A stretch of DNA of 64,000 nt from Paraspadella gotoi. Its lineage: Eukaryota; Animalia; Chaetognatha. The translations under genes were made by a program, and so were the position numbers. This document shows, in pieces, positions 4,595 to 56,540 of the stretch; position 1 is the first letter of the stretch; each line of letters opens with the position of its first letter. A model generated the notes under the pieces. It was not told the origin of the DNA. It searched no databases and worked only from the letters and a program-made list of their open reading frames with translations. Location: assembly GCA_051294375.1 (NCBI GenBank), contig CM119268.1, forward strand, positions 20,430,148 through 20,494,147. The letters run 5' to 3'.

Positions 4595-7500
4595 TCTCTC
4601 TTCTCTCTCTCTCTCTCTCTTTTCACACATTCAGTCAGTTTGGTCTGTCTCACTTCCGTTTAAATACCGTTTAAAATTCGTCGGAATCATACCACAAATA
4701 ACTGTTCAGAACTGTTAGGAATATTTATTAAGATGTCTTTTGCTAGTGTATCAAGATGGATTCAGATTTTCAAAAACGTTCACACAAGTGATCACACATA
4801 TATATACTTTAATTTAAAACACCTTTTATTCGATTTGAAATTCTCAACATGAGAGATCCCGGTCGATTTTTATCTGGCTCCTAAATTATGCAAATTAGCT
4901 TACGATCGAATTTGTCAGATAACGATGACGCTCTTTATTCGCGTAATTTTAAACGTTTTATTATTGTAATATAATAAATAATTGAATATTATAGTTTTTA
5001 GAATATATATTTTATAAATATAAATAATTTATAGTATTTATACTAATATAAAATAAGACAAAATAGCAATTAAATGAGATCTTGAATGCTTCTTTTTCTT
5101 ACCAAAATGAGGAATTCAAAGAGATTTTTGCATAAAATAAAATATTAACTATTTTGCTTGTTTAAGTTCCTTATTACATATAATATAATATAAATTGTAT
5201 TATAAATTGTATAATTCATTCGTTTAAGTTACTATTATACGTGCTTTAATAAATAGGTAAATATGGAAAAACTTGATAACAAAGATTAAAATAACCAATA
5301 AAAGTAAAATTTTTAAAAAAAATAATAATACTAATATTAAATTAGTATTTAATAATTTAATAATAATAATTAATAAAAAAATTATTTTAAAAATTACTGC
5401 AAAGAAAGAATTTAAATTATTTAAAATTATTAATGAATATTTTTCTATATTTTTTAAAGTAATTTTTAGTCAACTAGGTTCCATTAGGATTGTACCCACG
5501 TAGGAATACGTGGAATACGTGGGCGGAATACTATGGGTGCAATTGTATGTGGGCCAATGCTACATGGGTGCAATCCAAGGGGCGCAATTTTATGGGCCCA
5601 ATAATACGTGGGCACAATCCTGCTACCACGTATATACATATAGATAAGTGAAAAGGATCCATTCAATATCATAATCAATGATTTAAGTATATTATGTTTG
5701 AATGATCAGGAAGAAAATTAAATACGATCTAATAAATATTACTAAATTTGAATAGCAAATACATAGATTGGACGATTGGATCCTTTTTGTGTTGAGGCAA
5801 CATGAACCGGACTCATTTTTTGATATGGTATAAATAACTGTCTCTATTAATTTGTTTAATTTTCTGATCATAATCAAAAAACTACTTTCATTTATAAAAG
5901 AAAACAGAGAACTTTTGAGAGGGAAACTTAACTCCAAGATTTTAAAGAATTGCTTTTGTTTTTATAAGTTTTTTAAATCAAAACATGTCAATTAATTATA
6001 AAATTAATCGAAACCTATTGTCTGTAAATAATGATAGATTGCTTTGTTAATTTTTCAATCAACCAAATTGAAAAAGTGAGTAAACAAATTATGATTAAAA
6101 ACAATATGATAATATGATAACATTTTCATTGTTAACAACAACGATGAAGGCTAACAATTAGTTCGAAAATGTCCATTTTTATGTAAAAACATTATGTCGT
6201 TATTATTAACCATTAAAAAGTTATTATTTCGTCTCTAAATCAAACAACAAATGAAAATAAATAATACAATGACTAAAAACTAAAAAAAAATTCCGAGATA
6301 TTTTTTATAATTGAAAAAAAGTTTGACTATGGATGCTCAAACCCTCATTCATCCTTAATTATTGGCCTATTAATAGTTATAAAAATGAAACTATAGTACA
6401 TAGGAAAATGACTTCTATAATATAATAATAGTTTAAGAAGAAGGGGATAAAATTGTAATCAAATCATATCCGTTTAAAGCATTTGTGTTTTTGTATAAAT
6501 ATTGTCATTGTTAAAAAAATTTTATCTTTTATTAAATATTAATTATATTTATTGTTATTTATCATTTGACTATATAAGATCATATTTTATATTAATTTCT
6601 CTTTAAATATGTGTTCAGACTGAATTTCAGTTACAGCAAAACAAAAATAGCGATTAATTTCTAAAATGTTTTCCTATAAAAAAACAGAAAAACTAGTAAA
6701 AATCACAACATGCAGCTACTAAAAACTTATAAAATTATTAAGCATTCTGAAATTATTAATAAAACATAGAAAATATTATTAATAATACATATGTTATTAA
6801 AAAAAACTAAACTCATCGTCAGATTTCACAGGGAAAAGATGCTCTTTTTATGAAAAATTCGCGAATATCCGCCAGGTTCGCTAGTATCTTTTGTTCTTTT
6901 TGACCGGCTTGACCGGTCTTTAACATTAAAAAGATACGAAATGACGTATTCGATCTCGGGATCTCTTATGTTCGATGCATTAAACTTAAATATTTTTTAT
7001 ACGAAAATTATTTATATATACGTCTGATTAAGTGTGCAAACGTTTTTTTATGAAACTCGATGTCTGTATATTACTAACTTTTGGTCAGTTGTCTATTTTG
7101 GGCTAGTTTTGCAGTTTTGTCTATTTTCGACTAGTTTTGTTTTTAAAATATTATACAAATAAGTCGTAAAAATATATTAAAATATAAAAGTTAAAATTAA
7201 ATATATTAAAAAATATAGATATCTTACCTTCAATTGTGACCCATAAGTTCAAAGGTTTTATTTTTGTTTATTTCTTTATCTTAAGAACGGACGTCTCCTC
7301 ATACGACGCCTTTGAATTCGGAGTTCCCATTGGTCGACGCTCCTCGCTCCTTGACGTGGATTGGTCAGATTCTCGTGACTTTTTACCTCGGCTGCAGCTT
7401 TTCATTCGAGGCGGCGCTGCAGCGCGGGCGAGTTCCAATCAGAAATATGGAGAGAGGAAAGAACGTGGCGATGTATAAGGTAAGTAGATGGTAAGGAATC

Positions 7501-8879
7501 GATTATTCGAAAGGGTTTTTGCTGTACATCATTTAAATTCTTTCCGATGAGCAGAGTTTACTCATAAGAATTATTTGTTTATTTTTAATTATTTATTTAA
7601 TTTTCATGAGAAATAATATAATACTAAACCACGACACCACTATTAAAATAAAATACAAATTGTAATAAAACGATGATCAATGATAAAGTTTTATCCATCG
7701 AGAATTAAATGTTAAAAACAGATCCAAATGTTTATCAAATATGTTTAATATTTCCCTTCACCACAATTCCCTCTCTCTTTTCTCTTCCAGACTTCCGTCT
7801 TCCTCTTCACGCCCCCCATCTCCCCCCGTCCCCATGGTGGTCTCCCTGCGCCCCCTCCCCCCTTCCCTCCTCGAGACGTGCTTTTCCATCACGGCGCCGA
7901 TGGCCGACGCTCACGGGGCGCCGGTTCACGTCGGCGCCCCTGGCGTTATCGGCATCGAAGACGTGATGGCGCCGGATTTCGGGGAGAGGCGCCGGATTTT
8001 GAAGACGGCGATGTTCCGGTCTTTTGGGCCTGCGGAGTCACGGGGTTGATGTTGATGGAGAAAATGAGTGAGTTTTGATGTTGTTGTTGTCACGTGGGGA
8101 TGATGATGATGATTATGAATTGGTAGTTGTTTTTTTATTAATTGTTAAATTATTAATGTTGACCTTTTCTGTTTAATGCTGTTGTGAAACTAATTGGCCC
8201 GTAGCGAGCATTGCTCATTGCGTGTAATGCTAATGCTCAGGTTCTCCCTCGCCATGCTCACAAACTTTTTCCCTCTAATCGTTGCTCAGTGACTCACTGA
8301 ACAAAGCCAGTAGCACATGATCCCGGGTTCGATGTCAGCCCCAGTGCCTCTCCTACCTACGAGGGGCTGAAGTTGTTGCCGTTTTCATTTTCCACCGAAA
8401 GTTAATTGGAAAATCTCTTTGTCTCGTTCTCAGAATCGCCCATCTCTCTCACTCACTCTCCCGGCAACATGTTCCTTTGCGACGTCTCCGCTCAAGAACA
8501 AAGTCTTTACCATCAACAGCAGCAGCCGTCGTCGCCGCCGCAGCAGCCGCAGAAGCCGCCTCAGCCGACGCCGCCACAGCTCCACCCGCGCGTCTTCCGC
8601 ATCTACAGCAGTCCGCTCACTTACGCGTCGTCGATTGCTATGGTTTTGGAACTGGTCGTCGGAATGAGGAGAAGATTGGGAGGAAGAGGAGGAGGAGGAG
8701 GAGGAGAAAGAGGTGGAGGAAATCGAGCTTCGTAAGTTTAAACTTTTTTTCAAAATAAGGAAAGTATTGTCGAAATTTAAAGACCATTGCATTTTTTTGT
8801 CTAGCCCAAATAGGTTTCACCGCTTTTCAAAATCCATTCATAGTCGTGGCCCAATTCTTTACCCCAAACCGACTTTTGG

Positions 8880-11977: not shown

Positions 11978-13226
11978 TATTAATTAATTAATATTAATTT
12001 TTTTTGATGGTCAAAATTGTTTTCCACTTTGTTTCGCCTCACAATCACAAAACAACAACTTCGATTACAAAATTAATTAATTAATTACAAATAATTAATA
12101 ATTAATTAATTATTTATTAATAATTAGTTAATGCAGCTTGAATTTATATTTAATATAAAAATAAAAAAGCATAATCAAATAGGGAAATAGATTTTTTGTT
12201 TTTTCCATTTTCACTCATTTTAACTCAACGATTCCATCGAAACTTTATTTCCTGTTTAATCACACACTTTCAGACCCACATACAAAATTTGAAGTCAAAT
12301 TATTTCTACTAAGTTTCAATTTTTTTTCTGGTATGCAAACCGAATAAATTCTCAGCTATCATTTAAAAACAGAAATGTTTAGTGTTTTAAAATTGAACCT
12401 TTGCTAGAATGTGGATTCTGTCAAGAATTAAACTGGAAAAGATGTTTAATTTTTCTATTTAGCTTCCGTTTATTTAATTATAAAATAGAATAGAATTAAA
12501 AAGTAGAAAAAATACAAGTTATTTCTCTTTCTTTCTCTCTCTCTCGGTTTAAACTTCGCCAGACTGGTTCTAAAGTAAGAGATTAATTACAAATTTAAGT
12601 TAAAAATCTTATCAGGAGCTTGATAAAGAATACAATCGATCAAACAATGTCGTATCTGCCCACGATCATTAGCGGTAATTAATTAATAAATTAGTTAATT
12701 TGATTTCTTCACTGACCATGACAATGACAATAATGCTGATAACGAGTGATTTGATTGATTGATTGATTAAATAAATAAATTGTGTGATTGAATAATTAAA
12801 TAATAGATAAATAAATTGATTGATTGAATAATTAATTTATTGATTGACTAATTAATTATTGATTAATTAATTGAGTAATTGATTAATTAACAGAGTAATT
12901 ATTTGATTAATTAATACATCTTGCATTTACATTTAATATAAAATAAAAAAGAATAATCAGTTAGTGAAACAGGTTTTTTGTTTTTTCCATTTAAACTCAT
13001 TTCCACTCAGACTATTCCATCGAAACTTGATTTCCAGCTTCATCACACACTTTCCTACCCACATACAAAATTTCAAGTCAATCGCCCCATACACTCGTGA
13101 GTAATTGGCGTTCAAATACTGAAATAGTTTTTTGGCTCTTTTCCACTCTCACGAATCCGTCGAAACTTCATATTGAAGAGACAGTAATTATTGATATGTG
13201 TTAATGACAGAACCGTTCAATATAAG

Positions 13227-13298
13227 CAGTCCCTGAGCTTTGGATCAGGCAGTAACACCGAGTTACAGGCGGGTTAAGCGCCCCATCCCTCTTAACTG
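13227..13298 (-). ncRNA. Twister ribozyme motif, P5-type permutation (family A, 3' LTR)
   Basis: Minus strand: CAGUU aaga GG GAUGG GGCGCU UAA CC C GC cu GUAAC ucggu GUUAC ug CCUG AUCCAAAGCU CAGG GACUG. T1 CCA:UGG, T2 GC:GC, P3/P4/P5 all pair. Predicted cut between 13276 and 13275. Confidence 0.85.
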
Positions 13299-13302
13299 TT
13301 AG

Positions 13303-13374
13303 GCGGCCACCAGGCTAGAACCCTGGACCTTTGGATTGGGAGACAAATGATTTGCCTCCGGCACCAATGGCCGC
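13303..13374 (-). ncRNA. 72-nt tRNA-like (Gly-CCC-like) Pol III module in family A LTR
   Basis: 7-bp acceptor stem GCGGCCA/TGGCCGC, A-box-like TGGTGCCGGAGG, CTCCCAA anticodon-like loop, B-box-like GGTTCTAGCC. The anticodon stem is imperfect, so this is not a functional tRNA. Confidence 0.7.
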
Positions 13375-13649
13375 TGATGAACGGTTGGTGGATTTTAGTC
13401 CACCATACATCCCCCCCTCCCGTAGAGAGAAGTTTGTCGCGTCTCTTCAGTGAATTGTTGGTGGAAAGTGCATCACCAAGTTGAGGCATGTCGCCTGATG
13501 TGTTGTTGGCGGAAAGTGCATCGCCAGGTTGAGGCATGTCGCCTGAAAGTGTTGTTGTTGCTGTTGTGTTCGGATGTTGGGCTCACCAATGAAGAGACAG
13601 TAATTATTGATATGTGTTAATGACAGAACCGTTCAATATAAGCAGTCCC

Positions 13650-14021
13650 GGTAAGTATAAGTATATAAGTATACTCGGTAGGAAGGGTAACGGAGGTGGT
13701 AGGAATTTTTCCGTGGTCGGATGTGAAACTGATGGTCTGTGTACTCGGTAGGAAGGGTAACGGAGGTGGTAGGAATTTTTCCGTGGTCGGATGTGAAACT
13801 GATGGTCTGTGTACTCGGTAGGAAGGGTAACGGAGGTGGTAGGAATTTTTCCGTGGTCGGATGTGAAACTGATGGTCTGTGTACTCGGTAGGAAGGGTAA
13901 CGGAGGTGGTAGGAATTTTTCCGTGGTCGGATGTGAAACTGATGGTCTGTGTACTCGGTAGGAAGGGTAACGGAGGTGGTAGGAATTTTTCTGTGGTCGG
14001 ATGTGAAACTGATGGTCTGTG
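13650..14021. repeat. Insertion of five exact or near-exact 70-bp units plus a (taagta)-like tail, flanked by a GTCCC duplication
   Basis: Units run 13671-14020; GTCCC at 13645-13649 and 14022-14026. Confidence 0.9.
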
Positions 14022-14092
14022 GTCCCTGAGCTTTGGATCAGTCTGTAACACCGAGTTACAGGCGGGTTAAGCGCCCCGTCCCTCTAAACTGC
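14022..14092 (-). ncRNA. Twister motif, family A 5' LTR (P5 3' strand split by the insertion; one T1 mismatch)
   Basis: Same core as 13227-13298, with GACGG in place of GAUGG. Confidence 0.65.
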
Positions 14093-14479
14093 TAGGCGGC
14101 CACCAGGCTAGAACCCTGGACCTTTGGGTTGGGAGACGAATGACTTACTTCCAGCACCAATGGCCGCTGATGAACGGTTGGTGGATTTTAGTCCACCATA
14201 ATATCCAGCTCAATCACACACTTCCCTACCCACTTACATAATTTCATTCCAATCCAACTCTAATTACTCAGTAATTAGAGTTTTTTGCTTAGGTGGGACG
14301 GACGGACGGATGTTCAATGTTCTGACATGATATAAGTGAATGCCCAACAAGATTGAGGGGGCGGACCGACAAAGTGAATTATAGAGTCGGAATCTGCTGA
14401 TGAGTAGATCCGACTAAAATACGAAACAATTATTTGACTGCTTCCAATCGCTTAAGCGTAATTTTCATACTCGTTAAAA

Positions 14480-15330: not shown

Positions 15331-18300
15331 GAGAGAGATAGAGAAAGAGAAACTTTAAAAAATTCAAATAAATGTGTATTTTGGTTTTCTAATTTGAACT
15401 CTTTTCCACTCATACGAATTTATATTCAGCTTTATTACATACTTTCCTACCCACACACAAAATTCCATTTCAATTTATCTATCCAATTTTTAATAAACAT
15501 TATAATTATAAGTAAATTTAAGTAAAAATACTTCAAGTAAATATGACTTTTGTTTTTTCCATTTTAACGCATTTCCACTTGCACGATTCCATCGAAACTT
15601 TATATCCAGCTCAATCACACACTTTCCTACCATGATACAAAATTTCAAGTCAATTACCCTATCCACTCATGAGCAATTAGCGTTCAAATAGTGAAATAGA
15701 TTTTTTTGTTTTTTCCATTTAAACCATTTTCCACTCGTACGATTCCATCGAAACTTCATATCCATCTCAATCACGCAGTTTCCTACCCACACACAAAATT
15801 TCATACCAATCCATCCATCCAATCACGAGTAATGGGAGTTTTTTTGCTAAGGGGGGACGGACGGACGGACTAACCTTATCCCTAACCGAAACCCTAAACA
15901 ATTAATCCATCGTTCAAATTATCGTTCAAATTATCGTCGTCGTATTTGTCGATCCTGACTCTAAGTCATCCAGCCAGAGAGAGCGAGAGAGATTCGCTGC
16001 TCCTTCATACGGCAAAGGGGCATCGATGTTTGATAAGGCCCAATATTTTGGGGTGGGACCGACGGACCGACAAAGTGAATTATAGAGTCGGAATCTGCTG
16101 TTAAGCAGATCCGACTAAAAGCAGTAACAGTAACGGTATAAATAACAGCATACTGATCACAAAAATATAACCAAAACCACTAATATCAAATTATAAAACG
16201 CTACTAAAATGTTAAAAGCTACTTCATAAAAGACTGTAAAACTAAAAGTCGTTTAACAAAATCTCGATTTCAAAATTTTTTACTCAGTTTTTGCTCGCAC
16301 GTCTTTCCTGCGGAGCAACTCTATATGTTTTAGTCAATCTCGTGACGATATGCCCGTTTGACGATATGCCCGTTTGACTAGTCCAATTTTGATGCACCTC
16401 AATCATATTGTGGATAAGGCGCTAAGTGGGCTGAAGATGACTATCCGTAACTTCTATAACCCCTTTTAGTAGCCATGAAACGGGTCCTGGGCTTGGAACC
16501 AGGTTTGAGGGTTTGCCACACCCCCAAGGCGGCTTACGGCCGTCCTCACGCTTCCCGCAGGCGAGGTACCGGGTTGGGATTGAACCTGGTACCTAGTGGT
16601 CATGAGTTGATGGCTTTACTCAATGAGCCACCGGGTCAGGACTGAAGGTGTCATGCTTATAGGCAGGGTGAACCTAGGCAATGCCCGACTACATGCCCCC
16701 CAGATTGTAACCCACCCTGCACTGCTTCCAGTGGAGGGAGGGGAGCAATCTTCAGCACGTCCATGGGCCTGGAATCAGAAGGTTGGAATACGCTCGACAG
16801 GATGGGCTCACCAGTGTGGAAAAGGCACTAAGTGGGCTGAAGATGACTATCCGTAACTTCTATAACCCCCTTTAGTAGCCATGAAACGGGTCCTGGGCTT
16901 GGAACCAGGCTTGAGGGTTTGCCGCACCCCCAAGGCGGCTTACGGCCGTCCTCACGCTTCCCGCAGGGTAGGTACCGGGTTGGGATTGAACCCGGTACCT
17001 AGTGGTCATGAGCTGATGGCTTTACTCAATGAGCCAACAGGTCAGGACTGAAGGTGTCATGCTTATAGGCGGGGTGAACCTAGGCAATGCCCGACTACAA
17101 TATAACAGTAATCATCAGGAAACATATGATAAATAATTATTTTCGCAAAAAATAAAAGATTATTAGTTGTATAAAAATGAGGATTTAATTAAGGCTAGAA
17201 AACAAATCATCAGTTCAATAGTAGTTAATACGTCAAAAAAACATTATGAAATTGGTACAACCAATATAAAAATTATCCATTCATTTAATAAATAAGCTAT
17301 CTTGCCCCTGACTTTGGACAGGCTTTGGTGGTTTAAGGCCTCCATCACTCTTACAAGATAATTACACAGCAGGTCCCTGCAAGCTTTCAATCAAGACTCT
17401 CTGACAGTCCCGTTTATTCACTCCCAGAGTACTTGGCTTCCCTATGTTTCAGGCCAAAACAGGCCATTTTATCTCCCTCCCTCGATTATGTTTCAGGCCA
17501 AAAACATGCCATTTTTACCTCGTACCCTATAATTTCACTCAGGCCAAAAACAGGCCAACATAATGATAGTCCCGTCCACCTTCGCCGAAGACGTCAAAGA
17601 AATCTGCCGCCGCAACGCTGCTCCGCTGCCGCTGCTGTACAATAGCAGCAGAGGTGAGACAGGGGCGCCGACTCTGACCGAGAACTCGAACATCAGGTGA
17701 GTTAACTGGAAAAATTTTGGGTGAGTAAGGACTGTAAATGTTGATTGTCCTCATTGGTGAAATGAGAATTAATATCATAAACAAATAAAAAACAAAAAAA
17801 TGATTATACTGTGGTGGTATATTCACACCACCTCACGTCCACGATCGTTCAGCCAATACCATTGGCTCAGAGGGGGAACACACCATCACAGGCGTTGTGT
17901 TCCATCCACAGTCCTAACGATTTCCCTCTGCGTTGACAAAGCGAGGGTCGGAAGCCCCCAAAGCCAACAGTGAGATTGCCCCTTACCAATGGGCATCACA
18001 GGCAACCCGGCTGTTGCCATAATACCATGAAGAAAAAAAATTTGTCCAGCTGTTTTTCAGCATTTTAATGTAAAAATAAAAAAATAAAATTTAAATATCA
18101 AGAAACTTTAGCCTTTTGTAATTCATATGAGCTGTATCTCATTTATGTATAATAAAAATACAAGAGTTCGATGCAAAAAACAATGAATTGCCGAAAAAAT
18201 ACTTCTTTGTTTTTTTATCGTTTTCATATCTATAAGTTTTATTTATACTAATTTTTTTCAGTTTTATGTCAAATGGTTATTGCATCATCTTTATTAGGAT

Positions 18301-19496
18301 AGATTCAAGGATAAATATTAATTCATATGTAAAATAAAAAGTGGTATTAAAAATATATTGATGCTGTAACTGCTCCAAAATATTTTTTTATATTATAAAG
18401 TATCAATAAAAGTTATAAGGCTCCTTTTTGTAAATAAAATTATCATTTTTATTTACCTCTGGATGTATTATCAAAACCAAATATCTAACAAGTCCAAAAA
18501 AAAATCAAAGATTTGTTGAAGTGAAAGATAATATATTATCACATTATACAGCAACAACTCGAGCCTAGTTTACTTTATAAAGGATCAATCTTTTTTACTG
18601 TTTGCCAAAGATAATTTTTTTTACAAAATCTGATAAAAAATATTATGAAATTGGTATAACCAATATAAAAATTATCCATTCAATTAATAAATAAGCTATC
18701 TTGCCCCTGATTTTGGACAGGCTTTGGTGGTTTAAGGCCTCCATCACTCTTACAAGATAATGACATGCAAGCTTTCAATTAAGAATCTCTTACAGTCTAG
18801 TTTATTCACTCCTAAAGTTCCTGACTTCCTTATCGATGAAGTGGTATAATATTTCAAAGTAAGTTTGAATTGTATGAAAAGACTACTCCTTAAGTAATAG
18901 ATCGGGGAATACTATATTATACTCCGCCCAGCATAAAATACAAGGAGCTGAATTTTATGAAATTGATACAACCAAAATAAAAATTATCTATTCATTTAAT
19001 AAATAAGTTATCTTACCCCTGACTTTGGTGGTTTAAGGCCTCCATCACTCTTACAAGATAATGACATAGCAGGTCCCTGTAAAAAAACTCTTAGAGATAT
19101 AATATTAATGATAAATATAATATCTTGATCAAAAAAAGGTAAAAACAGTTAGAGACAACCTCTTTTGGAAGTATTCGTATGCATTTAAATAATTTTGTGC
19201 TATTAAGAAATAATCTTCTTATTCAGTCTTAGGGAATTATATTATATATTAAAACTCATTTATTGGCCAAAAAATACATTTAACAATGAAATTAACCGAC
19301 TTTTCCAAACCGCGACAATTTTTTTTGCCATCATGGTAGATAACGCTAAATAAAGACAAAACGAGACTATGGAAAAATTACTAATTAAATTTTTAAATAA
19401 ATGCAAGTTATTCGTAAGTTAGTTTCAAAATCCTCAAATTCCAAAACGACAAATTATAGTAAATAAACAAGACTTAAGAAAAAAGAAACGAAAACA

Positions 19497-19527
<31 letters not shown>

Positions 19528-19679
19528 AAGTGAGTTGACGGCGGCGCTGTTTTCCACGTCGATCACGAACAGAAGGACAGCCTCATTCACCAACTTTTAA
19601 TCTTTAATATTTAATGTCGCTCATCATAAATCTCTACGCGGGTTCCGCCTAAAAAATCATAACCAGATGGAGAGGGAGT

Positions 19680-19729
<50 letters not shown>

Positions 19730-20177
19730 TAGTAAGCTTTCACAATTGACTTTTAATGAATGTGCCATATGCTATCTGTCGTGAGTCTCGATTATTCTTT
19801 CGATGTGAAAAAAGTTGAAAACTTGGGTCGTTGATTAAGAAAGAGAAAAAAAGGGATTAGGAAAAGAAAAGGAAGGAAAGGAAAAAAGGAGAAAATGGAA
19901 AAAGAAGAAAGGATCTAGGAAAGAAGAAAAAAGGAATTGATAGAAAAAAAAAAGAGAAAGTTCTAAGCAAAAAATTTAAGGACTTTTCTTTGTTATAATT
20001 TCCTTTCTTTTTCGTTTCTTCAGGTTCGTAAACCGAACCGAAACATGTCCGTTCATCATTAAATAAATTTGTTGCTGAATCACAATTTAAACTTTTCTCT
20101 TAGGACTTTTCTTGAAATAAATCCGGCAACATTTAAAAAATTATGATAAAAGAGGAATTAGGTCCAATGTGAAAGAA

Positions 20178-20262
<85 letters not shown>

Positions 20263-22587
20263 GCGAAGGAGATTTCCCGGGTCAGAATAATACATTACCT
20301 AATGTCTTATTAGTGTTTTGTTTATTACGTTTTTGTTTTAGAACCGACCTACCTTCCGTTATGACTTATGAATTCGGCGTTCCAATTGGTCAACGGTCTT
20401 GCCCCGTCAATGCTGATTGGTCCGATTTTGTGACCTTTTACGTCGGCTGCAGCTACTCGTTTGAAGCGGCTCTGATCGCGGGAAGAATTCCCATCAGAAA
20501 CATGGAGAGAAAAAAAGATGTGGCTGCGTATAAGGTGATGAAAAAGGAATGAGTGAGTGAAGAGAGTGAGTCAGTGAGCCAGTCAGTGAGTCCGTCAGTC
20601 AGTGAGTTAGTGAGTGATAGACAGAAAGAGAGAAGAAGGAGAGAGAAGGAGAGAAGGAGAGAGAGAGAAAGACAGAAGGAGAAAGAAGGAGAGAGAAAAG
20701 GGAGACAGAGAGAGAGAAAAGGACAGGAGAGAAAAGGAGAGACACAGAGAAAGAGAGAGTGGCGGAGAGAGATATAACAACATCTAGGAACCATTTGATC
20801 AATATGTAATTTTTGAAATAGTCAACAAACAAGACCTCTTTAGCCTTAACTTACCTTTAGCCCTAACTTACCTCACCCGTAATCAACTGCTCCTCCCTTT
20901 TCAGACTTCCGTCTTCCTCTTCACGCCCCCCCATCTCCCCCCCGTCCCCATGGTGGTCTCCCTGCGCCCCCTCCCCCCTTCCCTCCTCGAGACGTGCTTT
21001 TCCATCACGGCGCCGATGGCCGACGCTCACGGGGCGCCGGTTCACGTCGGCGCCCCTGGCGTTATCGGCATCGAAGACGTGACGGCGCCGGATTTCGGTT
21101 TGACGCCGGATTTCGAAGACGGCGACGTTCCGGTCTTTTGGGCTTGTGGAATAACTGGGAGACTTTTGATGACGGCGTTGAGTATGTCTGTTGGTTGTTG
21201 GCTTTGTTGTTGTTTGGAATGACTAAAATGTCTGTCTGTCCGTCGGTCTGTCTGTCGATCATTTTGTTCATCCGATTTACTATTTACAAAGTAAGACATT
21301 TCAGTTGGTACATTTATCTGATTCTTCATGAAAATTAAAGTTACAGTTTCTGAAAAAAAAAAATTTTCATTGTCAAAAAATAAACTGATCAGCAGACGCA
21401 GCCCCTGAGAAAAAAAAATAAATAAAAAACCCGATGTTGCGATAGCAAAATGATAACATGCACGAATGCGATGCCTTATTTTACGAGTTCAATCCTAATT
21501 CAATTTTTTTTTAATAAAAACGCAGAGAGAGAGAAAGAGAGAGAGAAAAAAAAAGAAAGAAATCAAAAGGCAGCAGCAGAAGCAGCTTGAGAAAAGAGAG
21601 AAAAAGAGAGAGCCCTGCAGAGCTGAAAATTTATATACAGCTTCTCATCATCGATGTCCTTAAAATTGAGTCAGGACAGTTATTAAATATGTTTTGTTTA
21701 CGTTTTATCAAAACAAACAAATTTTCTCTCTTTTATTTTTATATTTCTTTCTCTCTCTCTTTTCTCTTTTAATTATATGTCTCTCTCCCTCTCTCTTTTC
21801 CCTAGTCACTGATTCATAGGAAAAAAAAACCGAGTCTGCAGGGGCTTATTCTTTTTCTCTCTTTTCTCCTGCTGCTTCTGCTGCTGCCTTTTGAGTCTGT
21901 AGCTGGCTCTGCAGGGGCTCTCTATTTTCTCCTGCTGCTTCTGCTGCTGCCTTTTTATTTCTTTCTTTTTTTCTCTCTCTCTCTCTGCGTTTTTATGAAA
22001 AAAAAAATTGAATTAGGATTGAACTCATAAAATTAAGCATCACATTCGTGCATGTTATCATTTTGCTATTGCAACATCATGTTTTTTTTTCCCTTTTTTT
22101 CTCAGGGGCTGCGTCTGCTGATCAGTTTATTTTTTGACAATGAAATTTTTTTTCTTTTTTTCCTTTTTTTTTCAGAAACTGTAATTTTAATTTTCCTCGG
22201 TACTTTATTATTTTTTTTAATTGACAATCGCAAAATAGAATTTTTCTTTCTGTTTATAAATTAATTTTCTTTTCTCAAATTCTCAAATAGTATCAAAATT
22301 TGTCGTCAATCCAGATTTTTCTTATGCGATTGCGACGATCCTTATGCTTTTAAGATTTTTATTGCGAGTTGTTGTTATTACACTTGACATTGTCGTTATC
22401 ATTAATTTAACTGATATTTTAATTTCATGTAACTTTTTCTTCAGAATCTCCCATCGCTTTCACCGATGCCTTGGATAATTTGTTTTTGTGCGACGTTTCC
22501 TCCGAGCAGCAGCAAGAGGACGGGCAACAGCAGCAGCAGCCGCCGACGCCACAGCTCCACCCGCGCGTCTTCCGCATCTACAGCAAT
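14480..22587 (+). CDS. DGLUCY: D-glutamate cyclase-like gene, copy 2 (exons 1-5; later exons displaced to ~27.85-28.85 kb by local scrambling)
   Basis: Exons 14480-14642, 17543-17696, 20342-20534, 20905-21181 and 22445-~22587 join in frame: TTTSGLAKGQKQANIMIVP, CRRNAAPLPLL, FVTFYVGCSYSFEAAL, AHGAPVHVG, VPVFWACGITG. Confidence 0.88.
14933..16120 (-). mobile_element. Full-length DINE-1/HINE-like element with internal 18-bp and ATCA tandem repeats
   Basis: 5' hairpin gtcggatctgct..agcagattccgac at 16087-16116; 3' subterminal repeat plus gtttgagcaaac stem at 14938-14965; 18-bp repeat 14990-15270; (ATCA)n 15270-15330. Confidence 0.7.
16480..16558 (-). ncRNA. Twister ribozyme motif, P5-type (family B, 3' LTR)
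   Basis: Same core as 16886-16964, with one terminal P3 mismatch; predicted cut 16536/16535. Confidence 0.8.
16566..16637 (-). ncRNA. tRNA-like (Met/Lys-like) Pol III module in family B LTR
   Basis: A-box-like TGGCTCATTGAG, CTCATGA anticodon-like loop, B-box GGTTCAATCC; TATAA ~20-25 nt upstream. Confidence 0.65.
16886..16964 (-). ncRNA. Twister ribozyme motif, P5-type (family B, 5' LTR)
   Basis: Minus strand: GCGGG aagc GU GAGGA CGGCCG UAA GC C GC CUUGGGGGU gcggcaa ACCCUCAAG CCUG GUUCCAAGCC CAGG a CCCGU. T1 UCC:GGA, T2 GC:GC, 9-bp P3. Predicted cut 16942/16941. Confidence 0.85.
17240..19080 (+). repeat. Three dispersed copies of a ~130-200-bp repeat (17240-17440, 18640-18830, 18955-19080)
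   Basis: Shared attatgaaattggtacaacc...gactttgg..gtggtttaaggcctccatcactcttacaagataat; degenerate copy near 39320-39440. Confidence 0.75.
17810..18021. mobile_element. Candidate solo LTR of a third family (or a small MITE)
   Basis: 212-bp GC-richer island, TGTGG...CCATA ends, ATAC duplication at 17806-17809 and 18022-18025, terminal hairpins. Confidence 0.6.
21332..22194. repeat. Foldback element with ~290-bp inverted arms in DGLUCY copy 2 intron 4
   Basis: 21332-21625 is the reverse complement of ~21895-22194; also present at 54230-55115. Confidence 0.8.
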
Positions 22588-22956
22588 GCTTCAGGCTGGG
22601 TCAGGAAGCTCCCTTCGACTTAACTGCATCGACGTCAACAGCGGTAGAACTAGGACTTTCGGCTCCAAAGACATTAATTCCCAACACTCTCTCATCGTTT
22701 TCACGAATGAAGAGATAATGGTTCTACAAAATCATCGTAAACTTAACGAAATCAACCACAAATTCGCACGATCGTAAAAAGACTTTCTCCCCAAGATAAA
22801 GCTTTTTAAAATTAAATCTCTCCGAAACTAGATTTAGTCGCTGCTTGAAAACATCGCAGATTCGTACGAAGGAACGAAGTCGCTTGATTGGGACAATTTA
22901 AAGTCCTGAGATGAAAACTTGAAATCAAAGGGTTTCTCGCGTCTACTGGCTATTTT

Positions 22957-23040
<84 letters not shown>

Positions 23041-23481
23041 GATGCGCCACATATCATTATAAAAAGGCCGTTATTTTTAATTGTGAAAAAACGTATTACA
23101 TAATATTTTTATTGACATTGGACATATATTAAAATATAAATTATATTAATGTTCGCTCCATTGTTTTTTAACTTCTTCAATTTCATTAGCAAGACTAAGA
23201 CTACCCCACCTCTTTTTTGACCAAGTAAGGGTGGGCGCGGCATCTTGATCCCACCTCTCCTCGCGTATCTCTCGTGAAAGATCGGAGGAGACCAAAGATC
23301 TGAAGGCGATGATGAAGGACCATGCATCGACGGAGTCAGGTCTGTTTATAAAAGGAGGGTTAGATTTTTGGTCACAAAAGAATAAAAAGTTCGGATTAAA
23401 AAAGGTGAGCAAAATCAATTTTTAATTCCAATCTCTAACCTATTCTCGAACCCTAAAACTACATATGTTAAATAAGTTATG

Positions 23482-24377
23482 TGTAGTGCGGGCAATTGCC
23501 TAAGTTCACCGGCTATAGGACTGAAACCTTCAATCTGTGACCCGGTGGCTCATTGAGTAAGACTCATGACACATGTACGGGTTCAATCCAACGCCGGTCC
23601 TACCCTACGGAAGCGTGAGGACGGCCGTAAGCCGCCTTGGGGAGTGGCAAACCCTCAAGCCTGGTTCCAAGCGCCGAAACCCGTTCCATAGGCTGCTAGA
23701 GGGGTTAAAGAAGTTGCGGATAGTACTCTTCAGTAAGGCGTAGTAAAATTATCTAAATTTACTTAATTAAAATTCTAAAAGTGAGGAAACGACATATATT
23801 ATATTAATTGAAATTCATATAATAAAAAAATTTATAATAAAATTTTACAAATTTACGCAGTAGGCCATATTTATACTATACTAAACCAATAATGTTAAAA
23901 TTTCAGAACAGTTTTTTTCTAAGATTTTTTTGCAGATTGGATTTGTCATAAAAAGTTGACAAAAAGAAATATAACTCTATTTTTGAAAAATCCTTCATTA
24001 AGTTGGTCAAAAATTAAAAAAAGCTATATTTTTAAGCTGAAAATTAACTTTTATATATTTAAATTATAGTTTTTTTAATTTTTACGACCACTTAATGAAA
24101 GAGTTTAAAAAATGATTTTATATTTCCTTTATCAACTTTTGACGAGGATTCAAAATCTGCAATCAAAATTAAGAAAAACCTATTTTGAAATTTTTCGTTA
24201 TTATAAGGATAGTACTCATTATAAATATACCTACTGCAAAAATTAAAAAACATAAAATTATTTTTTTTTACCAATTAATGTTCACTGATGGTATGTTGTT
24301 CATAATTGACTTTTAGAATTTTCGTATGTAACTTTCACTACGCTTACTCTTCAGCCCCACTTAGCGCCTTATTCACA
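23482..24377 (+). mobile_element. Family B solo LTR (inverted duplicate of 28303-28580) interrupted by a MITE; twister motif at 23607-23684
   Basis: tgtagt...; gaagcgtgaggacggccgtaagccgcc...ctggttccaagc; ...ttattcaca. Confidence 0.8.
23734..24346. mobile_element. Non-autonomous DNA transposon (hAT-like MITE), 613 bp
   Basis: Imperfect TIRs taaggcgtagtaaaatta / taactttcactacgctta; 8-bp TSD CTCTTCAG at 23726-23733 and 24347-24354. Confidence 0.85.
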
Positions 24378-27682: not shown

Positions 27683-27722
<40 letters not shown>

Positions 27723-27854
27723 TGACGATTGAAGAATGGAAACTTTTATATTCTAATGGCATTTCTAATCTCTGGCTTTAAAGGTTAAGTACTTGTATTT
27801 GTAATAATTGGAATTTGTGATTTTAAATTCTAAATTTGGGGAATTTTGACCTCA

Positions 27855-28851
27855 GAAGACTTGGCTCGTCGCATCGATTTCTTGGCCATCTTTATATTCG
27901 TTGATTTCCTGAAGAGGACGGGAAAATCGATCCAAATTTTCGGGAACAACAAAAGATCAAATTTGATCTTGAATCAGATCGGTATCGAAGCGAAGAACCA
28001 AGAATATACGGATGGGAATAGGTATCCATTTTTGGTTATGTTAAAACTTTTGTTAATTTAAATAAATTGACGAAAAATTAGATCCAAACATAATGACAAA
28101 CACCTTAAAATGATAAAACTTTTTTATTGATTTGCTTTTTCAGTCTCGAAACTTTGAAGGTCAAGATCGGAATGGAGCAAAAGGCTGACGAACACGAGAG
28201 AGTAATAAGTAGGTTTTATTTAATTAATATTTATAATTATTATCTAAAAAGCTTAATACGGCAATAAATTGTGGTACCGGCTAGCTACCGTCCTAAAGTC
28301 ATTGTGAATAAGGCGCTAAGTGGGGCTGAAGAGTACTATCCGCAACTTCTTTAACCCCCTCTAGCAGCCATGGAACGGGTTCTGGGCTTGGAACCAGGCT
28401 TGAGGGTTTGCCACTCCCCCAAGGCGGCTTACGGCCGTCCTCACGCTTCCCGTAGGGTAGGTACCGGGTTGGGATTGAACCCGGTACCCAGTGGTCATGA
28501 GCTTTACTCAATGAGCCACCGGGTCACAATTGAAGGTGTCATGCTTATAGCCGGGTGAACTTAGGCAATGCCCGACTACACATAACTTATTAACTATGTA
28601 GTTTTTAGGGTTCGGAATAAGGTTAGAGATTGGATTAAAAATTAGGATTTTGCTCACCTCTTTTTTAAATCCGACTTTTTATCTTTTGTGACCAAAATCT
28701 ACCTCCTTTTATAACAGACCTGACTCCGTCCGATGCGATTGTCCTCATCATCGCCTTCAGATCTTTGATCTCCTCCGATCTTCACGAGAGATACGCGAGG
28801 AGAGGGTTGGGATTCAAGATGGCCGCGCCCAGCCTTACTGGTCAAAAAGAG
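27855..28851 (+). CDS. DGLUCY: Displaced 3' exons of DGLUCY copy 2
   Basis: ~27855-28021 (FVDFLKRTGKSIQIFGNNK), ~28144-28202 and ~28718-28851 (DAIVLIIAFRSLISSDLHERYARRG) are homologous to copy 1 exons 7-9. Confidence 0.65.
28303..28580 (-). mobile_element. Family B solo LTR with intact twister motif (28375-28453)
   Basis: TG..CA ends, flanked by CAT on both sides; P5 here is ACGGG/CCCGU, so the G.U pair of the other copies becomes A-U. Confidence 0.88.
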
Positions 28852-29013
28852 GTGGGTAGGTCTTAGTCTGCTAATGAATTGAAGGAAGTTAAAAAAACAA
28901 TGGAGGACATTATATAATTATATTTTAATATATTGTCCAATGTCAATGAAAAATATTATGTAAACGTTTTTTCACAATTAAAAATAACGGCTTTTATAAT
29001 GGAATAGTGTGCG

Positions 29014-29087
<74 letters not shown>

Positions 29088-29099
29088 AAAATAGCAGTA

Positions 29100-29560
29100 G
29101 ACGCGAGAAACCCTTTGATTTCAAGTTTTCACTCAGGACTTTAAATTGTCCCCAATCAAGCGACTTCGTTCCTTCGTACGAATCTGCGATGTTTGTCAAG
29201 CAGCGACAAATCTAGTTTCGGAGAGATTTAATTTTAAAAAGCTTTTATCTTGGGGAGAAAGTCTTTTTACGATCGTGAATTTGATGGTGTGATTTCGTAA
29301 TTTCGTGATTTTGTAGAAGCCATTTCTCTCATCGTGAAAACCGATGAGAGAGTGTTGAGGATTAATGTCTTTGGAGCCGAAAAGTCCTAGGTTCTACCGC
29401 TGTTGACGTCGAGCAGTTAAGTTGAAGGGAGCTCCTGACCAGCCTGAAGCATAGTGCTGCCGCTATGCCCCCATGGCCTGCTGCTCTCCCGTATGAACCT
29501 TTTATCAATTCATAACAATACTTAATTCTCTGTCATAACTATGTACGTTTCTCCTGCAGC
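29100..29560 (-). other. Possible frameshifted coding exon of an unidentified minus-strand gene
   Basis: Balanced composition, AG acceptor near 29561, partial open frames (LFGSKDINPQHSLIGFHDERNGFYKITKLRNHTIKFTIVKR); no family recognised. Confidence 0.3.
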
Positions 29561-30112
29561 TGGAATTTAGAAAGTTTATTTTGAAAAGGACTTTTGCTGT
29601 GTTTATAGTGATTGGGGGGCAGAGGCTGGGATGCGGCCAGGGGCGTAGTAGTGGGGGCGGAAAGGTTAGGGTAAGTTAAATGGATTCGGGCGGTGAGGAA
29701 AAGCGGGACGCGAGAGACTCGAGTCAAAGTTTGGAAAATCGTTTTTGTTGATACTTAGTCCCTAAAACCCAACGCCAGTTTTAAGCCTTTGGTTTGCCAA
29801 ACACGAGCTTTAGACCTGAGAGGGCAAAGCGAAAATTAAAGAATGANNNNNNNNNNNNNNNNNNNNNNNNNTCTTTTTTAAAAATCAAAGAGAATAGCTG
29901 GAGAGTAAATTTATAAGAATTATTATCAAATTGTGATATGGCTTATCTTAAAATTTTCCTTTTTTCTCAGCGCCTTTCAAATGATACTTATAATAATATA
30001 ATATTTTTGTTATATAATTTAAAACTAGGTCATATATTTTGAAAAAAGATTTAAAAATTTTAAATAATTCACTTTTGACAGCTCTTAATTGAACCAAGCT
30101 GGGCCAGCTCAC

Positions 30113-32473: not shown

Positions 32474-35400
32474 AAGAGCTGGACAAGACGCTGCAGAGGC
32501 GGAACTCGTTTTTAGAAGAAGCAGTGACCGGGAGAAAAAGAGAGAGAGAGAGAGCGACATATATTAAAACGTTTTTGTTTTGTAAATAAAAACATAAACT
32601 AAAATACCAATATTGATAAATGAAACAATGAAGAATTTTAAAGATGCTTGATGATTAGAAGCCCATATATGAAAATTCAACACCTATGATACTCACACTT
32701 TCAGAAGCCAGATTGGCAAAAAGCGAGACGCACCGAAAGCTAAACCGAAAAAAATCTAGACAGGACGGGCTTTTGCCCGCTCTGGGCTCGATAATAGAGG
32801 ATATTTGTTTGTTTTGATAAAATGTAAAACAAAAACATTTTAATAACTGTCCCTGACTCAATTTAAAGGACATCGAATGATACAAAGCTGAAATAAAATT
32901 ATAATTAATCTATAATTAATTAATCTATTAATTAATTAATTAATCCTATTAATTAATTAATTATTAATCAATTAATTAATTAATGTATCGTAGGCAGAAT
33001 CCGACATTGTTTGCTCAAAACTTGTTAATGTTAGAGCTTTTCGTAAGTATATTCATCGTCTCTTCATATTTTTAAGGGCTTTCTGAGGAATATTAATATT
33101 GTTAATATTTTAAATAAACACTTTGTTTTAAAAAGTGTTAAAAGTTAAAAAAAAAGAATTTAAAAACAGTGAGTTGGAAAAATGAAACCCGATTTACAAG
33201 CCAACTTTCTCCCACTCCATTGTCAAGGCCATATCTTAAACTGATCACTAATAAAAGTTTTAAACACATAAATAGTTTTAGTATTTTCTAAACTCAACTA
33301 ATTTTTAAAATAAAAAAAATTAACTACTGGTTTACAAATGAACAAGCGTATTTCTGAGCCGGCGCTTGTTAAAAATTATCACCATGTATATGAGCTAATT
33401 CAATATGCTTTCCTAATTATTTTGCCAATTCTTTAACGTGACGCTTTCAATAAGACCTTGTCTATTGGTCCGCAGCCGCGCGTGGCCAATGGGGAAATAA
33501 CAGTAGAAGGCAACCAGTGAACTCGGTTGTTCTTGAATGTTTTTGCGGTTGAAGACCAGATTCGGTCCTGTTGTCAATGCGAAAAACAAAAAAAAAAATA
33601 ATTTCAAGAGCAAAAGTTAGATATTTTTCAGATTTTCTTCTCGTTGAATATACATATGATTCTATTCTATGAAAAAAATCGTTGAAGTTCTCTCCTCTGT
33701 TCGAAAATGTTCTCAACAAAAGACAATAAGAGATCGAAAACAAAAAATATTAAGAAATTAAAGGAATTGGGAAATGTCACCGAGAAAAATGAAAATCTGA
33801 CGGATAAAAGATAGAAATCGGCCTGTTTTTAGGTTCCTGAATTCCATCCAATATTGAATATAAATTAATAATTATTAAAAACGTTATATATCATTAACTA
33901 ATAGCATTACCTTAAAAATACTGCTCGAACTGGCTATCGATGAAAGCCTCCAAACCGGCTCCAACATTCCTCGTTATTGACGGCGTCTCCGATCCACCGT
34001 TGTCTACGATGGTGAGACGGAGTTTGACGCCGCGTTCCTCGTCTCGCAACATCTTCTTCTCGATGTTGGACGTCTTGTCGATGCGCTCCTTCCACCGCCC
34101 ACAGTTTACGGTCTTTGTTAAGAGATCTGTCGAGGAAAGGATTTTCCCCAGCCGAGGGATGGGGGGAAGTCACGGTGAATAGTTCGAGAAAGTGAAGTTG
34201 TGATGTGTGAAAGTTGTCATTATTTGACGAAAGCCCCCATTTCTTTCTTGAATCTTGAGCTCAATTTTTAATCCTGTTATCTAATCTTAATCTTTTAACA
34301 AACCTCCACCGGCTAAACTCTAACCACATAATCGTGGACTTAAATAACTTAATAATTAATAACATAAAAATTAAATTAATTAGGAAAAAATCCTTAACCC
34401 TGGAACAATTATGCGTAATCCTTAAAACCAATAATCCTTTACCCCTAATCCCCTGACCAGTGACCACTCCATAACCAAACCCCATCACCTCACTCTCAAC
34501 CTCTGATGCTAATCTTTAAATTTAAAAATCTGACCCATACTGATATTAAGCATAAATGGGAACGCTTTAGTAATATTACTATCTAGGAAAAAACTAGCTC
34601 TTATACAGCAAATTGAGGTGTGACAGTGAAATGTTTTTGGCATCTTTAAACACAATTCTTTTTACGCCTCGATGTTGATGTTGAGCATCTTTCCCCTTTT
34701 TCTGAGAGCTATAATAACATTTTTTTTGGAGGCAAAATGGTGGGAAAACTAAATACTAATTTTTTTTGATCTATTTTTCATTTGAAGTAAACAATATTTT
34801 TTGCCTGTAACTTCTTAAAACGATTTGATCTAGCAAAAAAAAATTAAAAGAAGCTACCTAAAAAGAAATTCAATGTAGAATTCGGAATTTTTAAATTTTT
34901 ATTTTAAAAAGTCAAATAAAAGTTTTTGAGTAGATATCTTTTATTAAAAATGTGATATAGTTGGAAACTGTCAAAAACATGCTGTTGGGTAAGAGTTGAT
35001 TTCCCGAGTCCAGATTCGCCAACGACCAATGAGAGTGAAATCGAAGCCGCGTTTCACCGATTTTGCGATGAAATTATTTAATGAATTCAATGCTGTGAGA
35101 TTATGCATAGCAGATATTTTTGTACGAGAACTGCTAAGTTTTAAACGAATGTTCAAGTTTAGGAACGTGACTTTTTTCTTTATTTCTTTCGTTCTAGTTA
35201 TTGCATTTAATTTATTTATAATATATATATATAGTTATTTATTATATATTATATTTATGTTTGTTTGTTTTTTTCTTTGTTTTCTTTATTTTTTCTTCTT
35301 TATTATTTTTTTTCTTTCTTTCTGTACTTATTTTTTTTCTTTTCTTTCTTTTTTCTTTTCTTTCTTTTATTTATTTCCTTATTTTCTTTCCCTATTTCTT

Positions 35401-41876: not shown

Positions 41877-42878
41877 TATGGTGGACTAAATCCCCAACCG
41901 TCTCAAGGCTAGCGGGCCCATTGGGTTGCGGAGGCAAGTCAATGATTATCGCCTCGCGCAACCGCAAAGGGTCCGGGGGTTCTAGCCCCGGTGGATCGTC
42001 TGGCAGTTCAAGCGTAGGGACAGGGGTTGGCATAACCCGGCTGTAAACATGGTGTTACAGCCTTATCGAAGCACGGAATGCTTAATATTGAACGTTCTGT
42101 CATTAACACTTATCAATAATTACTAATCTCTTCATTGGTGAGCCCGACCTTCTGACACAACAGCAACAACAACGACGAGAGAGTTTTCCAGGAATACACG
42201 AGGTACGATACCGCATGGAACGGAAGGTGGACTACACAGGCCGGATATAGGTTGACTACAGAGCCACGGATTGGGCGACTGAGATCGGACTGCGTTCTAA
42301 GGGGGAATCGCATGTATTAACTATAGAAAGTAGGAGCGAGTGGGGAAATAGGTAACGTCCGCGAGACAGCGATTCATTGATCCTCATGCGCCCCGGACCA
42401 GCAAGCTAGGATAGGACTGTGGCGGTAGTTAAGGGCGAGACAAGAAAGTTAGTTCGAGAGAGAGAGAAGAGAGAAGAAGAGAATAAGAAAAGAGAAGAGA
42501 AGCTAAGGAGGGGCCGGACGAAGAAAGACATTTTGTTTTATGTGATGGGGAATTAATCTTTGGAACGAGAAAGCTCTCTCGAAGGTGTCAGTGCTTCAGA
42601 GATCGTATATTACAATCTCACAAGAAAACAGTTATCGTTCCGACAACAGATGTGCACCGAGTAACGAGAAGTGGCATGAACCGTAAGCTTTGTCACCGAG
42701 GATTTTACCGTCCCGCCATCTCGCGTACCCAGAGTTAGGTGCTGAAATGTAAGGATCAAAACGACGAGGCAAGATTGTGTAGCCGATATCAGAACTGGGG
42801 CCGGAGCCCCGGCCGTGAAAGGGGTTTCAGGGCTTAAGAGTGGAAGACGGAAGGAGCGGCAGCGCAGACCCGGAATGG
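41877..42878 (+). mobile_element. Family A-type LTR (41877-42134) plus PBS plus ~740 bp of different internal sequence; possibly a longer or autonomous element
   Basis: Starts TATGGTGGACTAAA, ends ctcttca, then TGGTGAGCCCGAC. Shares cacaacagcaacaacaac with the TRIM interior and then diverges. tRNA-like and twister parts are degraded. Confidence 0.75.
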
Positions 42879-52300: not shown

Positions 52301-53066
52301 AATAGAAACGACAGAGAGAAGAGAAGAGCGATATCACCTTAATAAGAACCACTCAAATAGCAAAAATATAATCCTGTAGCGGCGGCGCGGTTTCCACGTC
52401 GCATCACGAACAGTACGAAGGACAGCCTTCATCACCAATTTTAATCTTTAATATTGTTAATTCGCTCATCATAAATCTCTACGCGGCGTTCCCCTAAAAA
52501 ATCATAACCAGATGAGAGGAGTGGGAGAGAGAGAGAGAGAGAGCAGAGAGAGAGAGAGAGAGAGAGAGAGAAGACGAGAGAGAGAGAGAAAGAACTAGTA
52601 AGCTTTCACAATTGACTTTAATTGAATGTGCCATATGCTATTTCTGTCGTGAGTCTTCGATTATTCTTTCGATGTGAAAATTTAAAGTTTGAAAACTTGG
52701 GTCGTTGACGTAAGAAAGAGAAAAAAGGGTTAGGAAAAAGAAAAGGAAGGAAAGGAAAAAAGGAGAAAATGGAAAAAGAAGAAAAGGATCTAGGAAAAGA
52801 AAAAGGGAAATTGATAGAACAAAAAAAAGAGAAAGTTCTAAGCAAAAAATTTAAGGACTTTTCTTTGGTTATTTAATTCCTTTCTTTTTCGTTTCTTCAG
52901 GTTTTCGTAAACCGAACCAAACATGTCCGTTCATCATTAAAATAACATTTGTGCTGAATCACAATTTAAAACCTTTCTCTTAGGAACGTTTTCTTGAAAT
53001 TAAATCCGGCGGGGCAACATAAAAATTATTGAAAAAAGAGGAATTAGGTCCAATGTGAAAGAAAAG

Positions 53067-53138
<72 letters not shown>

Positions 53139-56509: not shown

Positions 56510-56540
<31 letters not shown>

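Follow-up and report, generated by a model that had tools for sequence, protein, structure and literature searches.

A short noncoding LTR element with a tRNA-like head

We analyzed a 64-kb stretch of contig CM119268.1 (positions 20,430,148 to 20,494,147; hereafter the window), in which a repeated element of 691 bp lies at 16409-17099 with its sense on the minus strand. Its two long terminal repeats (LTRs) of 285 bp differ at 12 positions (95.8% alike) and enclose an internal part of 121 bp. An earlier sequence-only reading of this DNA had described a complete element with TG..CA LTRs, a primer-binding site (PBS), a polypurine tract (PPT) and an ATAT target site duplication (TSD), and all of these are confirmed from the sequence:

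16815-17099, minus strand: 5′ LTR, 285 bp, TG..CA; ends of the family pile up at 17099/17100, with unlike flanks
16409-16693, minus strand: 3′ LTR, 285 bp, TG..CA
17100-17103, no strand: ATAT TSD, 5′ side
16405-16408, no strand: ATAT TSD, 3′ side
17063-17067 (in the 3′ LTR 16661-16657), minus strand: TATAA, upstream of the tRNA-like module
16971-17043 (in the 3′ LTR 16565-16637), minus strand: degenerate tRNA-like module for RNA polymerase III (Pol III), with A-box-like TGGCTCA at 17036 and a GGTTC B box at 16992
16820-16823, minus strand: TTTT run, a possible Pol III stop, in the 5′ LTR of this copy just ahead of the PBS
16803-16813, minus strand: PBS, TGGTGAGCCCA
16696-16701, minus strand: short PPT, G6, 2 nt ahead of the 3′ LTR

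The element is noncoding, as had been stated; the one open reading frame scanned (16611-16853) holds no Pfam domain. The A-box-like and B-box words of the LTR stand at tRNA spacing, which upholds this part of the earlier description, but ARAGORN calls no tRNA gene in the window. Nine of the first ten nucleotides of the PBS agree with the tRNA-Trp site in Fig. S2 of Kojima (PMC10886601).

This set of features is that of Helenus (TRIMp3), miniature terminal-repeat retrotransposons (TRIMs) described by Kojima as smaller than 1 kb, with two LTRs containing tRNA-like A and B boxes, a PBS, a PPT and no coding sequence; those of animals have a 4-bp TSD, here ATAT, and a Gypsy partner is assumed for them (PMC10886601). 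When the box motifs of that study were sought, TGGCT and GGTTC were present, and the position of YGG read TGAG. The element at 16409-17099 fits Helenus in LTRs, PBS, PPT, size, lack of coding, boxes and 4-bp TSD, and the earlier comparison with Helenus-type TRIMs is upheld.

A type-P5 twister motif in each LTR

Following the tRNA-like module, each LTR carries a motif of the twister ribozyme of type P5. In the 5′ LTR its parts were located by sequence:

16887-16963, minus strand: type-P5 twister motif of the 5′ LTR, found by Rfam in E-value mode and by descriptor
16963-60/16890-87, minus strand: P5
16957-54, minus strand: P2′
16953-49, minus strand: GA-GGA
16943-16948, minus strand: palindromic P1, CGGCCG, loop-less, the predicted LTR-LTR dimer interface
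16942-40, minus strand: U^AA, predicted cut U16942/A16941
16939-37, minus strand: P2
16936-35, minus strand: GC
16934-10, loop 16926-18, minus strand: P3
16909-16892, minus strand: P4/L4
16481-16557, minus strand: twister motif of the 3′ LTR, predicted cut U16536/A16535
16536-16941, minus strand: predicted unit-length RNA, 406 nt between the two predicted cuts

The core letters are complete (UAA; GA-GGA; U-UCC-AA-GC), both pseudoknots (T1 and T2) are of Watson-Crick pairs, and P3, P4 (5 bp) and P5 are present. To this extent the claim of a full twister consensus in each LTR holds, but P1 is a loop-less linker of 6 nt that leaves no loop room and allows one pair at most in cis, and P2 is bulged, consisting of 2 bp, a bulge and 1 bp. 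The predicted cuts proposed before occupy the twister positions, 406 nt apart.

At gathering level, Rfam gave no match in the 64-kb window. In E-value mode, Twister-P5 was the best match on both LTRs, with 17.9 and 16.9 bits (E 0.41 and 0.73) against a gathering score of 37.6. The shortfall of ~20 bits counts against our reading; the model treats the 25-nt P3 as an insertion. A P5-type descriptor that requires L1, L4, both pseudoknots, P2 and P4 matched 1 of 409,964 dinucleotide-shuffled LTR sequences. A looser descriptor matched 2 of 251,897 LTR shuffles, and in the window it matched only the three clean LTRs of this family (family B) and the 3′ LTR of a sister element (family A). Among the 163 loci that we gathered with loose twister-like patterns (45 viral and 118 metagenome loci, the 118 from 30 of 64 metagenome parts), 23 passed the descriptor, and natural motifs that pass it also include some with a 3-nt P2 strand, e.g., L009, L012, L037, L051, L079 and L134. 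BLAST at E 1e-3 against all 163 loci found no relatives of the element; the family-B-type pattern gave no match in metagenome contigs and the family-A pattern none in viral contigs. On one viral contig (L011-L013, L025) and on another (L034-L035), P5-type twisters whose P2 strands are 3 nt long occur in clusters, spaced by some hundreds of bases to ~1.5 kb.

In the tested twisters described by McKinley et al. (PMC11662667), long P3 stems and flaws in P1 and P2 are tolerated, and changes in the pseudoknots or catalytic bases lower cleavage. The pseudoknots and catalytic bases are intact in the LTR twister. We hold it very probable that this twister is real and under selection, and quite likely that it cuts in vivo.

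Copies and variation of family B

Family B is dispersed and present in many copies. Contigs mapping onto 16409-17099 numbered 8,415 of 7,042,937 in run X1 and 3,465 of 688,116 in run X5 of another study, a contig depth that does not equal copy number, and loose contig ends pile up at both termini of the element with unlike AT-rich flanks. No record of the element came from runs X13 and X14 of other organisms, which is no proof of absence. Two independent insertions are found in the window, the element itself and the following:

28303-28580, minus strand: solo LTR of another family-B subfamily (89%), twister core intact, cut U at 28431

Its flanks show only a 3-nt repeat, not a 4-bp TSD. The copies at 49320-49794, 23482-23733 and 57170-57468 were rejected as independent insertions because their flanks are those of 16409-17099 or 28580 and they sit inside long noisy duplicates. 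Such duplicates, with 82-90% identity and many indels, cover 16647-22587 against 49320-55523 as well as 22581-23733, 27689-29846 and 56510-58804; they are the same loci repeated in noisy form by the assembly. A joint from 16775 to 16409 was considered as a circle or tandem array and discarded, as it maps to the other LTR instead.

At a frequency of at least 2% in runs X1 and X5, six variant rows fall on the twister stretch, in a list that under-reports near the ends of the stretch and misses 16956 and 16963. Five of the six lie in the 9-nt P3 loop, for which we estimate a chance of 0.002 on the assumption that ~36 positions are reliably reported; two of the five are departures of copy 16409-17099 from nearly all others. 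The sixth turns the first P2 pair from G-U to A-U. Two further variants, among the 40 of 160 rows listed for the family, strike the P2 bulge (16956) and create a wobble in P5 (16963). Conservation of the core across copies had been named as a check, and the listed variants bear it out, all being located in the P3 loop or P2 bulge or keeping the pairing. The under-reporting and the scope of the family table, 40 of 160 rows, both count against this argument.

A diverged sister element retains the twister pairing

A sister element in the window represents family A:

13174-14200, minus strand: sister element, family A; PBS, PPT-TGTA junction and ATAT duplication all as in family B
13409-13174, minus strand: family-A 3′ LTR, tRNA-like fold and twister, predicted cut U13276, P1 GGCGCU

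Its 5′ LTR is broken up by 70-bp tandem repeats. The tRNA-like fold retains a 7-bp acceptor stem and a 5-bp T arm, and the sense strand has no run of four T. BLAST found only short words in common between the LTRs of the two families, and their global alignment scored above 200 of 200 shuffles; by sequence the LTRs are homologous but distant. Two noisy or partial relatives of family A were also seen, at 41877-42173 on the plus strand with the PBS kept, and at 1-151 on the minus strand, truncated by the window edge.

The family-A 3′ LTR passes the descriptor, as do 2 of 319,709 shuffles, and has no Rfam match at E 5. T1 reads GGA/UCC in B and UGG/CCA in A, so that two of the three pairs are altered on both sides, and the closing pair of P4 is G-C in B and A-U in A. 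P2 is GCC/GCGU in B and CCC/GAGG in A, with the first pair U-G in B and G-C in A, and with the bulge in the same position and the overall shape equal. The P3 and P5 stems differ in sequence with their pairing kept. As judged from the aligned sequences, the twister pairing is retained between the two families through compensatory changes in T1, P2, P4, P3 and P5.

A palindromic P1 and a predicted LTR-to-LTR dimer

The stretch between GA-NNN and UAA consists of six self-complementary bases in both families, CGGCCG in B and GGCGCU in A; the former makes with its neighbors an 8-nt palindrome at 16949-16942. Two copies of the P1 hexamer could form 6 bp with each other. The hexamer pairs are CG, GC and GC in B and GU, GC and CG in A, and only pairing between strands can accommodate the middle GC-to-CG swap.

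We compared predicted folds, computed without pseudoknots, with those of 19 distinct candidate natural motifs. The cis twister is predicted to lie 9.1-12 kcal/mol above the best fold, an off-hairpin that would bury the cut site. The candidate motifs lie 1.6-8.7 kcal/mol above theirs (median 3.1), and the cis LTR twister is worse than 19 of 19. In an LTR-to-LTR transcript, the strand-swapped form is predicted to be a rod, nested throughout, with two active sites; in each of them the upstream half of one LTR would be combined with the other's downstream half. In 4 of 4 LTRs folded, this dimer came out 12-16 kcal/mol better than a pair of cis twisters. The off-hairpin is predicted with a probability of 0.83 for a single LTR and of 0.82 for the circle; where one RNA carries two LTRs, the palindrome duplex reaches 0.43-0.58 in three transcript spans. 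In the cut 406-nt monomer, of which 64% is predicted to be paired, the off-hairpin would join the two ends.

The sequence-only reading had described a full twister consensus in each LTR and overlooked the loop-less, self-complementary nature of P1. The compensatory pairing and the rarity of descriptor matches support the ribozyme, but with the cis fold 9-12 kcal/mol above the off-hairpin, the folding model suggests that the LTR twister is not a plain cis ribozyme and that an LTR-to-LTR swapped dimer through the palindromic P1 would fit better. Precedent exists in dimeric hammerheads (PMC7761336, PMC6765202). Among 113 distinct metagenome matches with linkers of 4-8 nt, three were palindromic and none passed the P2/P4 filter.

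A proposed circular route and its rivals

We tentatively read the element as a noncoding Helenus-type LTR mini-retrotransposon with a twister motif in each LTR, a likely retrozyme whose transcript is cut as a dimer to a 406-nt RNA, circularized and reverse-transcribed by a partner. Transcription would start in the 5′ LTR at the tRNA-like module by Pol III, or by RNA polymerase II (Pol II) from TATAA. The two LTR twisters would pair through the palindromic P1 into a strand-swapped double twister, which would cut the LTR-to-LTR transcript twice and release the 406-nt RNA. The cut would leave 5′-OH and cyclic-phosphate ends, held together by the off-hairpin, and a host ligase such as RtcB could join them into a 406-nt circle. 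RtcB is a ligase of twister-cut ends, and the element resembles the engineered cassettes in which twisters and RtcB are combined for circularization. A tRNA would then prime reverse transcription at the PBS, complementary DNA (cDNA) of more than unit length from the circle would restore two LTRs, and a Ty3/Gypsy partner would integrate the cDNA with a 4-bp duplication. For the final steps of this scheme we rely on the plant retrozyme model (PMC4918200) together with Kojima's inference for animal Helenus (PMC10886601). For its separate parts, we lean toward the circle route, and if a circle is made, the dimer is probably the way to it.

The requirement for two LTRs would favor full-length transcripts for cutting and leave the 406-nt circle intact. 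The sequence does hold a 406-nt unit between the predicted cuts, but the TTTT ahead of the PBS could stop Pol III, so that this RNA may not arise from copy 16409-17099. The run has no counterpart in the 3′ LTR and is missing in ~99% of the family depth (row 16821), so this copy may not be a source copy under Pol III. Pol II from TATAA may be an alternative.

Several observations besides this TTTT run weigh against our reading. Even the swapped form is predicted to cost 5.5-7.2 kcal/mol for each twister relative to the best fold, and 7.0-7.2 exceeds 17 of the 19 candidate motifs. Folding the element as a whole lowers the probability of the palindrome duplex to 0.11, and the monomer folds in an ordinary manner (z -1.58 as a linear RNA, -1.3 as a circle). 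Strand swapping is open to every direct repeat that contains a hairpin, and simple collapse of a hairpin would likewise leave a palindrome (compare L023); the covariation of the P1 palindrome is based on two families. GA-CGG stands in two other family-A LTRs and does not match L4 CCA in the one whose L4 is visible, and the noisy copy at 41877-42173 has no clean palindrome. One rival keeps the same retrozyme cycle but has each twister, as a P1-minimal monomer, fold and cut in cis, with the palindrome as the remnant of a collapsed P1 hairpin. P1 can be largely dispensable in the tested twisters described in PMC8501958 and PMC11662667, a 4-nt loop could be closed by a C-G pair, and the folding model ignores both pseudoknots. 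A short non-palindromic linker is also known, in the descriptor-passing motif L010/L101 (~501-547 / 801-847), which is twister-like, lies on a viral/metagenome contig and has P3 and a 5-nt P1 linker. We nevertheless consider this rival unlikely, as the cis form is 9.1-12 kcal/mol above the minimum free energy, beyond all 19 comparison motifs, self-complementarity is kept with different letters in both families, and a cis twister free to act would cut the circle open again.

The dimer-cut circle also has to be set against a linear genome, in which an active twister would serve as end-former. Here mainly the 3′ LTR would be cut, the ribozyme substituting for a terminator, and an R repeat of ~100 nt from promoter to cut would permit ordinary strand transfer with no circle. 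The lack of a T4 run on the sense strand of the family, with none in family A, agrees with this, as do the outer twister alone being about as favorable as the inner one (7.0 vs 5.5 kcal/mol), the monomer fold of no special stability, and the ordinary route thought to be used by ribozyme-less Helenus (PMC10886601). The core is equal in both LTRs, however, with no sequence feature that shields the 5′ site, and the same layout in plant LTR retrozymes gives unit-length circles (PMC4918200), which makes the linear genome rather improbable. Somewhat less likely still is that the twister is a dead passenger, acquired with a tRNA-headed short interspersed nuclear element (SINE), in an ordinary Helenus TRIM. 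The sub-threshold Rfam score, the collapsed P1 and predicted off-hairpin, and Kojima's proposed derivation of Helenus from SINE insertion into an LTR (PMC10886601) would be accounted for in this way, but T1, P2, P4 and P5 are kept by compensatory changes between barely alignable LTRs, neither the catalytic G nor the catalytic A is altered, and the core is spared by the family variants listed.

Relation to known retrozymes, twisters and Helenus elements

The element resembles plant LTR retrozymes (Cervera et al. 2016, PMC4918200) in having a ribozyme in each LTR, a PBS, a PPT, a 4-bp TSD, no coding sequence and a predicted unit-length RNA without R repeat. Theirs is a type III hammerhead and not a twister, so that the original definition of a retrozyme does not cover this element. 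It also differs in its internal tRNA-like promoter, plant and animal retrozymes being described in a review as seemingly promoter-less, in its 121-bp middle and 406-nt unit versus 600-1000 nt, and in its likely animal host; circles are known for the plant elements and predicted here.

With the type-P5 twister (Rfam RF02684), the LTR motif shares the order P2′-GA-NNN-P1-UAA-P2-GC-P4/L4, all core letters and both pseudoknots, and it is set apart by the 25-nt P3 insert, the bulged P2, the loop-less 6-nt P1 and 17-18 bits vs 37.6. With the dimeric hammerheads described for Penelope-like elements, newt repeats and viroids, it has in common a helix beside the cut that is too short in cis and formable between copies, although the ribozyme class is another and the partner here would be the second LTR on the same RNA. 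A Pol III head followed by a ribozyme is likewise found in Schistosoma Sm-alpha SINE-like repeats, and Perere-3 variants carry a reduced-P1 twister in a retrotransposon (PMC6765202, PMC8501958). Both are non-LTR elements, and in Perere-3 the twister marks the 5′ end, with P1 supplied by the target site.

Helenus as described by Kojima differs in that no ribozyme is mentioned; the text of PMC10886601 does not contain the word "twister", and "ribozyme" appears in it a single time, in the title of a reference. The L4 word ccaagccc is absent from the line-wrapped sequences of its supplement, in which wrapping and further parts could hide variants. In two LTRs of that supplement, Helenus-2_SyJa-LTR and Helenus-2_SyUm-LTR of Synergus wasps, a hammerhead core can be read by eye after the tRNA head, with two mutually complementary hammerhead loops and a tRNA-Trp PBS, on which the main text is silent (PMC10886601). 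These candidate hammerheads suggest that ribozyme-bearing Helenus is more widely spread and has been overlooked. Two short U5 motifs that we picked by eye as common to Synergus Helenus-2 and the element, a tentative lead, gave different outcomes: one has four window matches, not above chance (36 of 100 shuffles), and the other six (0 of 100 shuffles), three of which are the LTR copies.

In Synergus Helenus-2 the candidate hammerhead occupies the same LTR slot, so that Pol III TRIMs would carry their ribozyme as an exchangeable module. The broader proposal, an animal lineage of tRNA-headed LTR retrozymes with such a module, a dimer-gated twister and a stable hairpin-ligated circle, is somewhat more doubtful than our reading of the element itself. 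The sequence-only reading knew of no element joining a tRNA-like LTR with a twister, and our searches agree: in the open literature, with subscription journals, Repbase and Dfam outside their scope, we found no twister LTR retrozyme and no dimeric twister in print. In the sources consulted, retroelement twisters are described only in non-LTR elements and LTR retrozymes only in plants (PMC7761336, PMC6765202, PMC13725137, bioRxiv 10.64898/2026.07.22.740005).

If active, the element would provide a concrete function for twister ribozymes within an LTR retroelement, extend LTR retrozymes from plants to likely animals, and join Helenus and retrozymes, which have been treated apart so far. A twister that requires a second copy for P1 would, if true, be a new mode of gating for its class and would explain how the precursor is cut with the circle left intact and solo-LTR transcripts spared. 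The arrangement of promoter, twister and ligase would then amount to a natural circularization cassette, and the model of replication from a circular template could be tested in a 400-nt system, of which two diverged natural versions lie adjacent.

Hammerhead-like motifs and coding exons in the window

The element contains no hammerhead core. The plus strand near 16838-16887 can be read as hammerhead-like, but we ruled this out, since ~97% of the family lack its GAAA (row 16884). A hammerhead-like core (CTGATGA...CGAAAC) is located at 14397-14430 on the plus strand, adjoining the family-A element and belonging to another repeat family. Exons encoding a D-glutamate cyclase (Pfam PF07286), a septin-2-like protein and the head of a myosin are found at 20340-21159 (plus), 7285-8075 (plus), 33915-34169 (minus) and 38382-38597 (plus). 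The host is a eukaryote; a search with the D-glutamate cyclase was dominated by prokaryotic matches, and the septin-2-like and myosin-head exons suggest an animal host.

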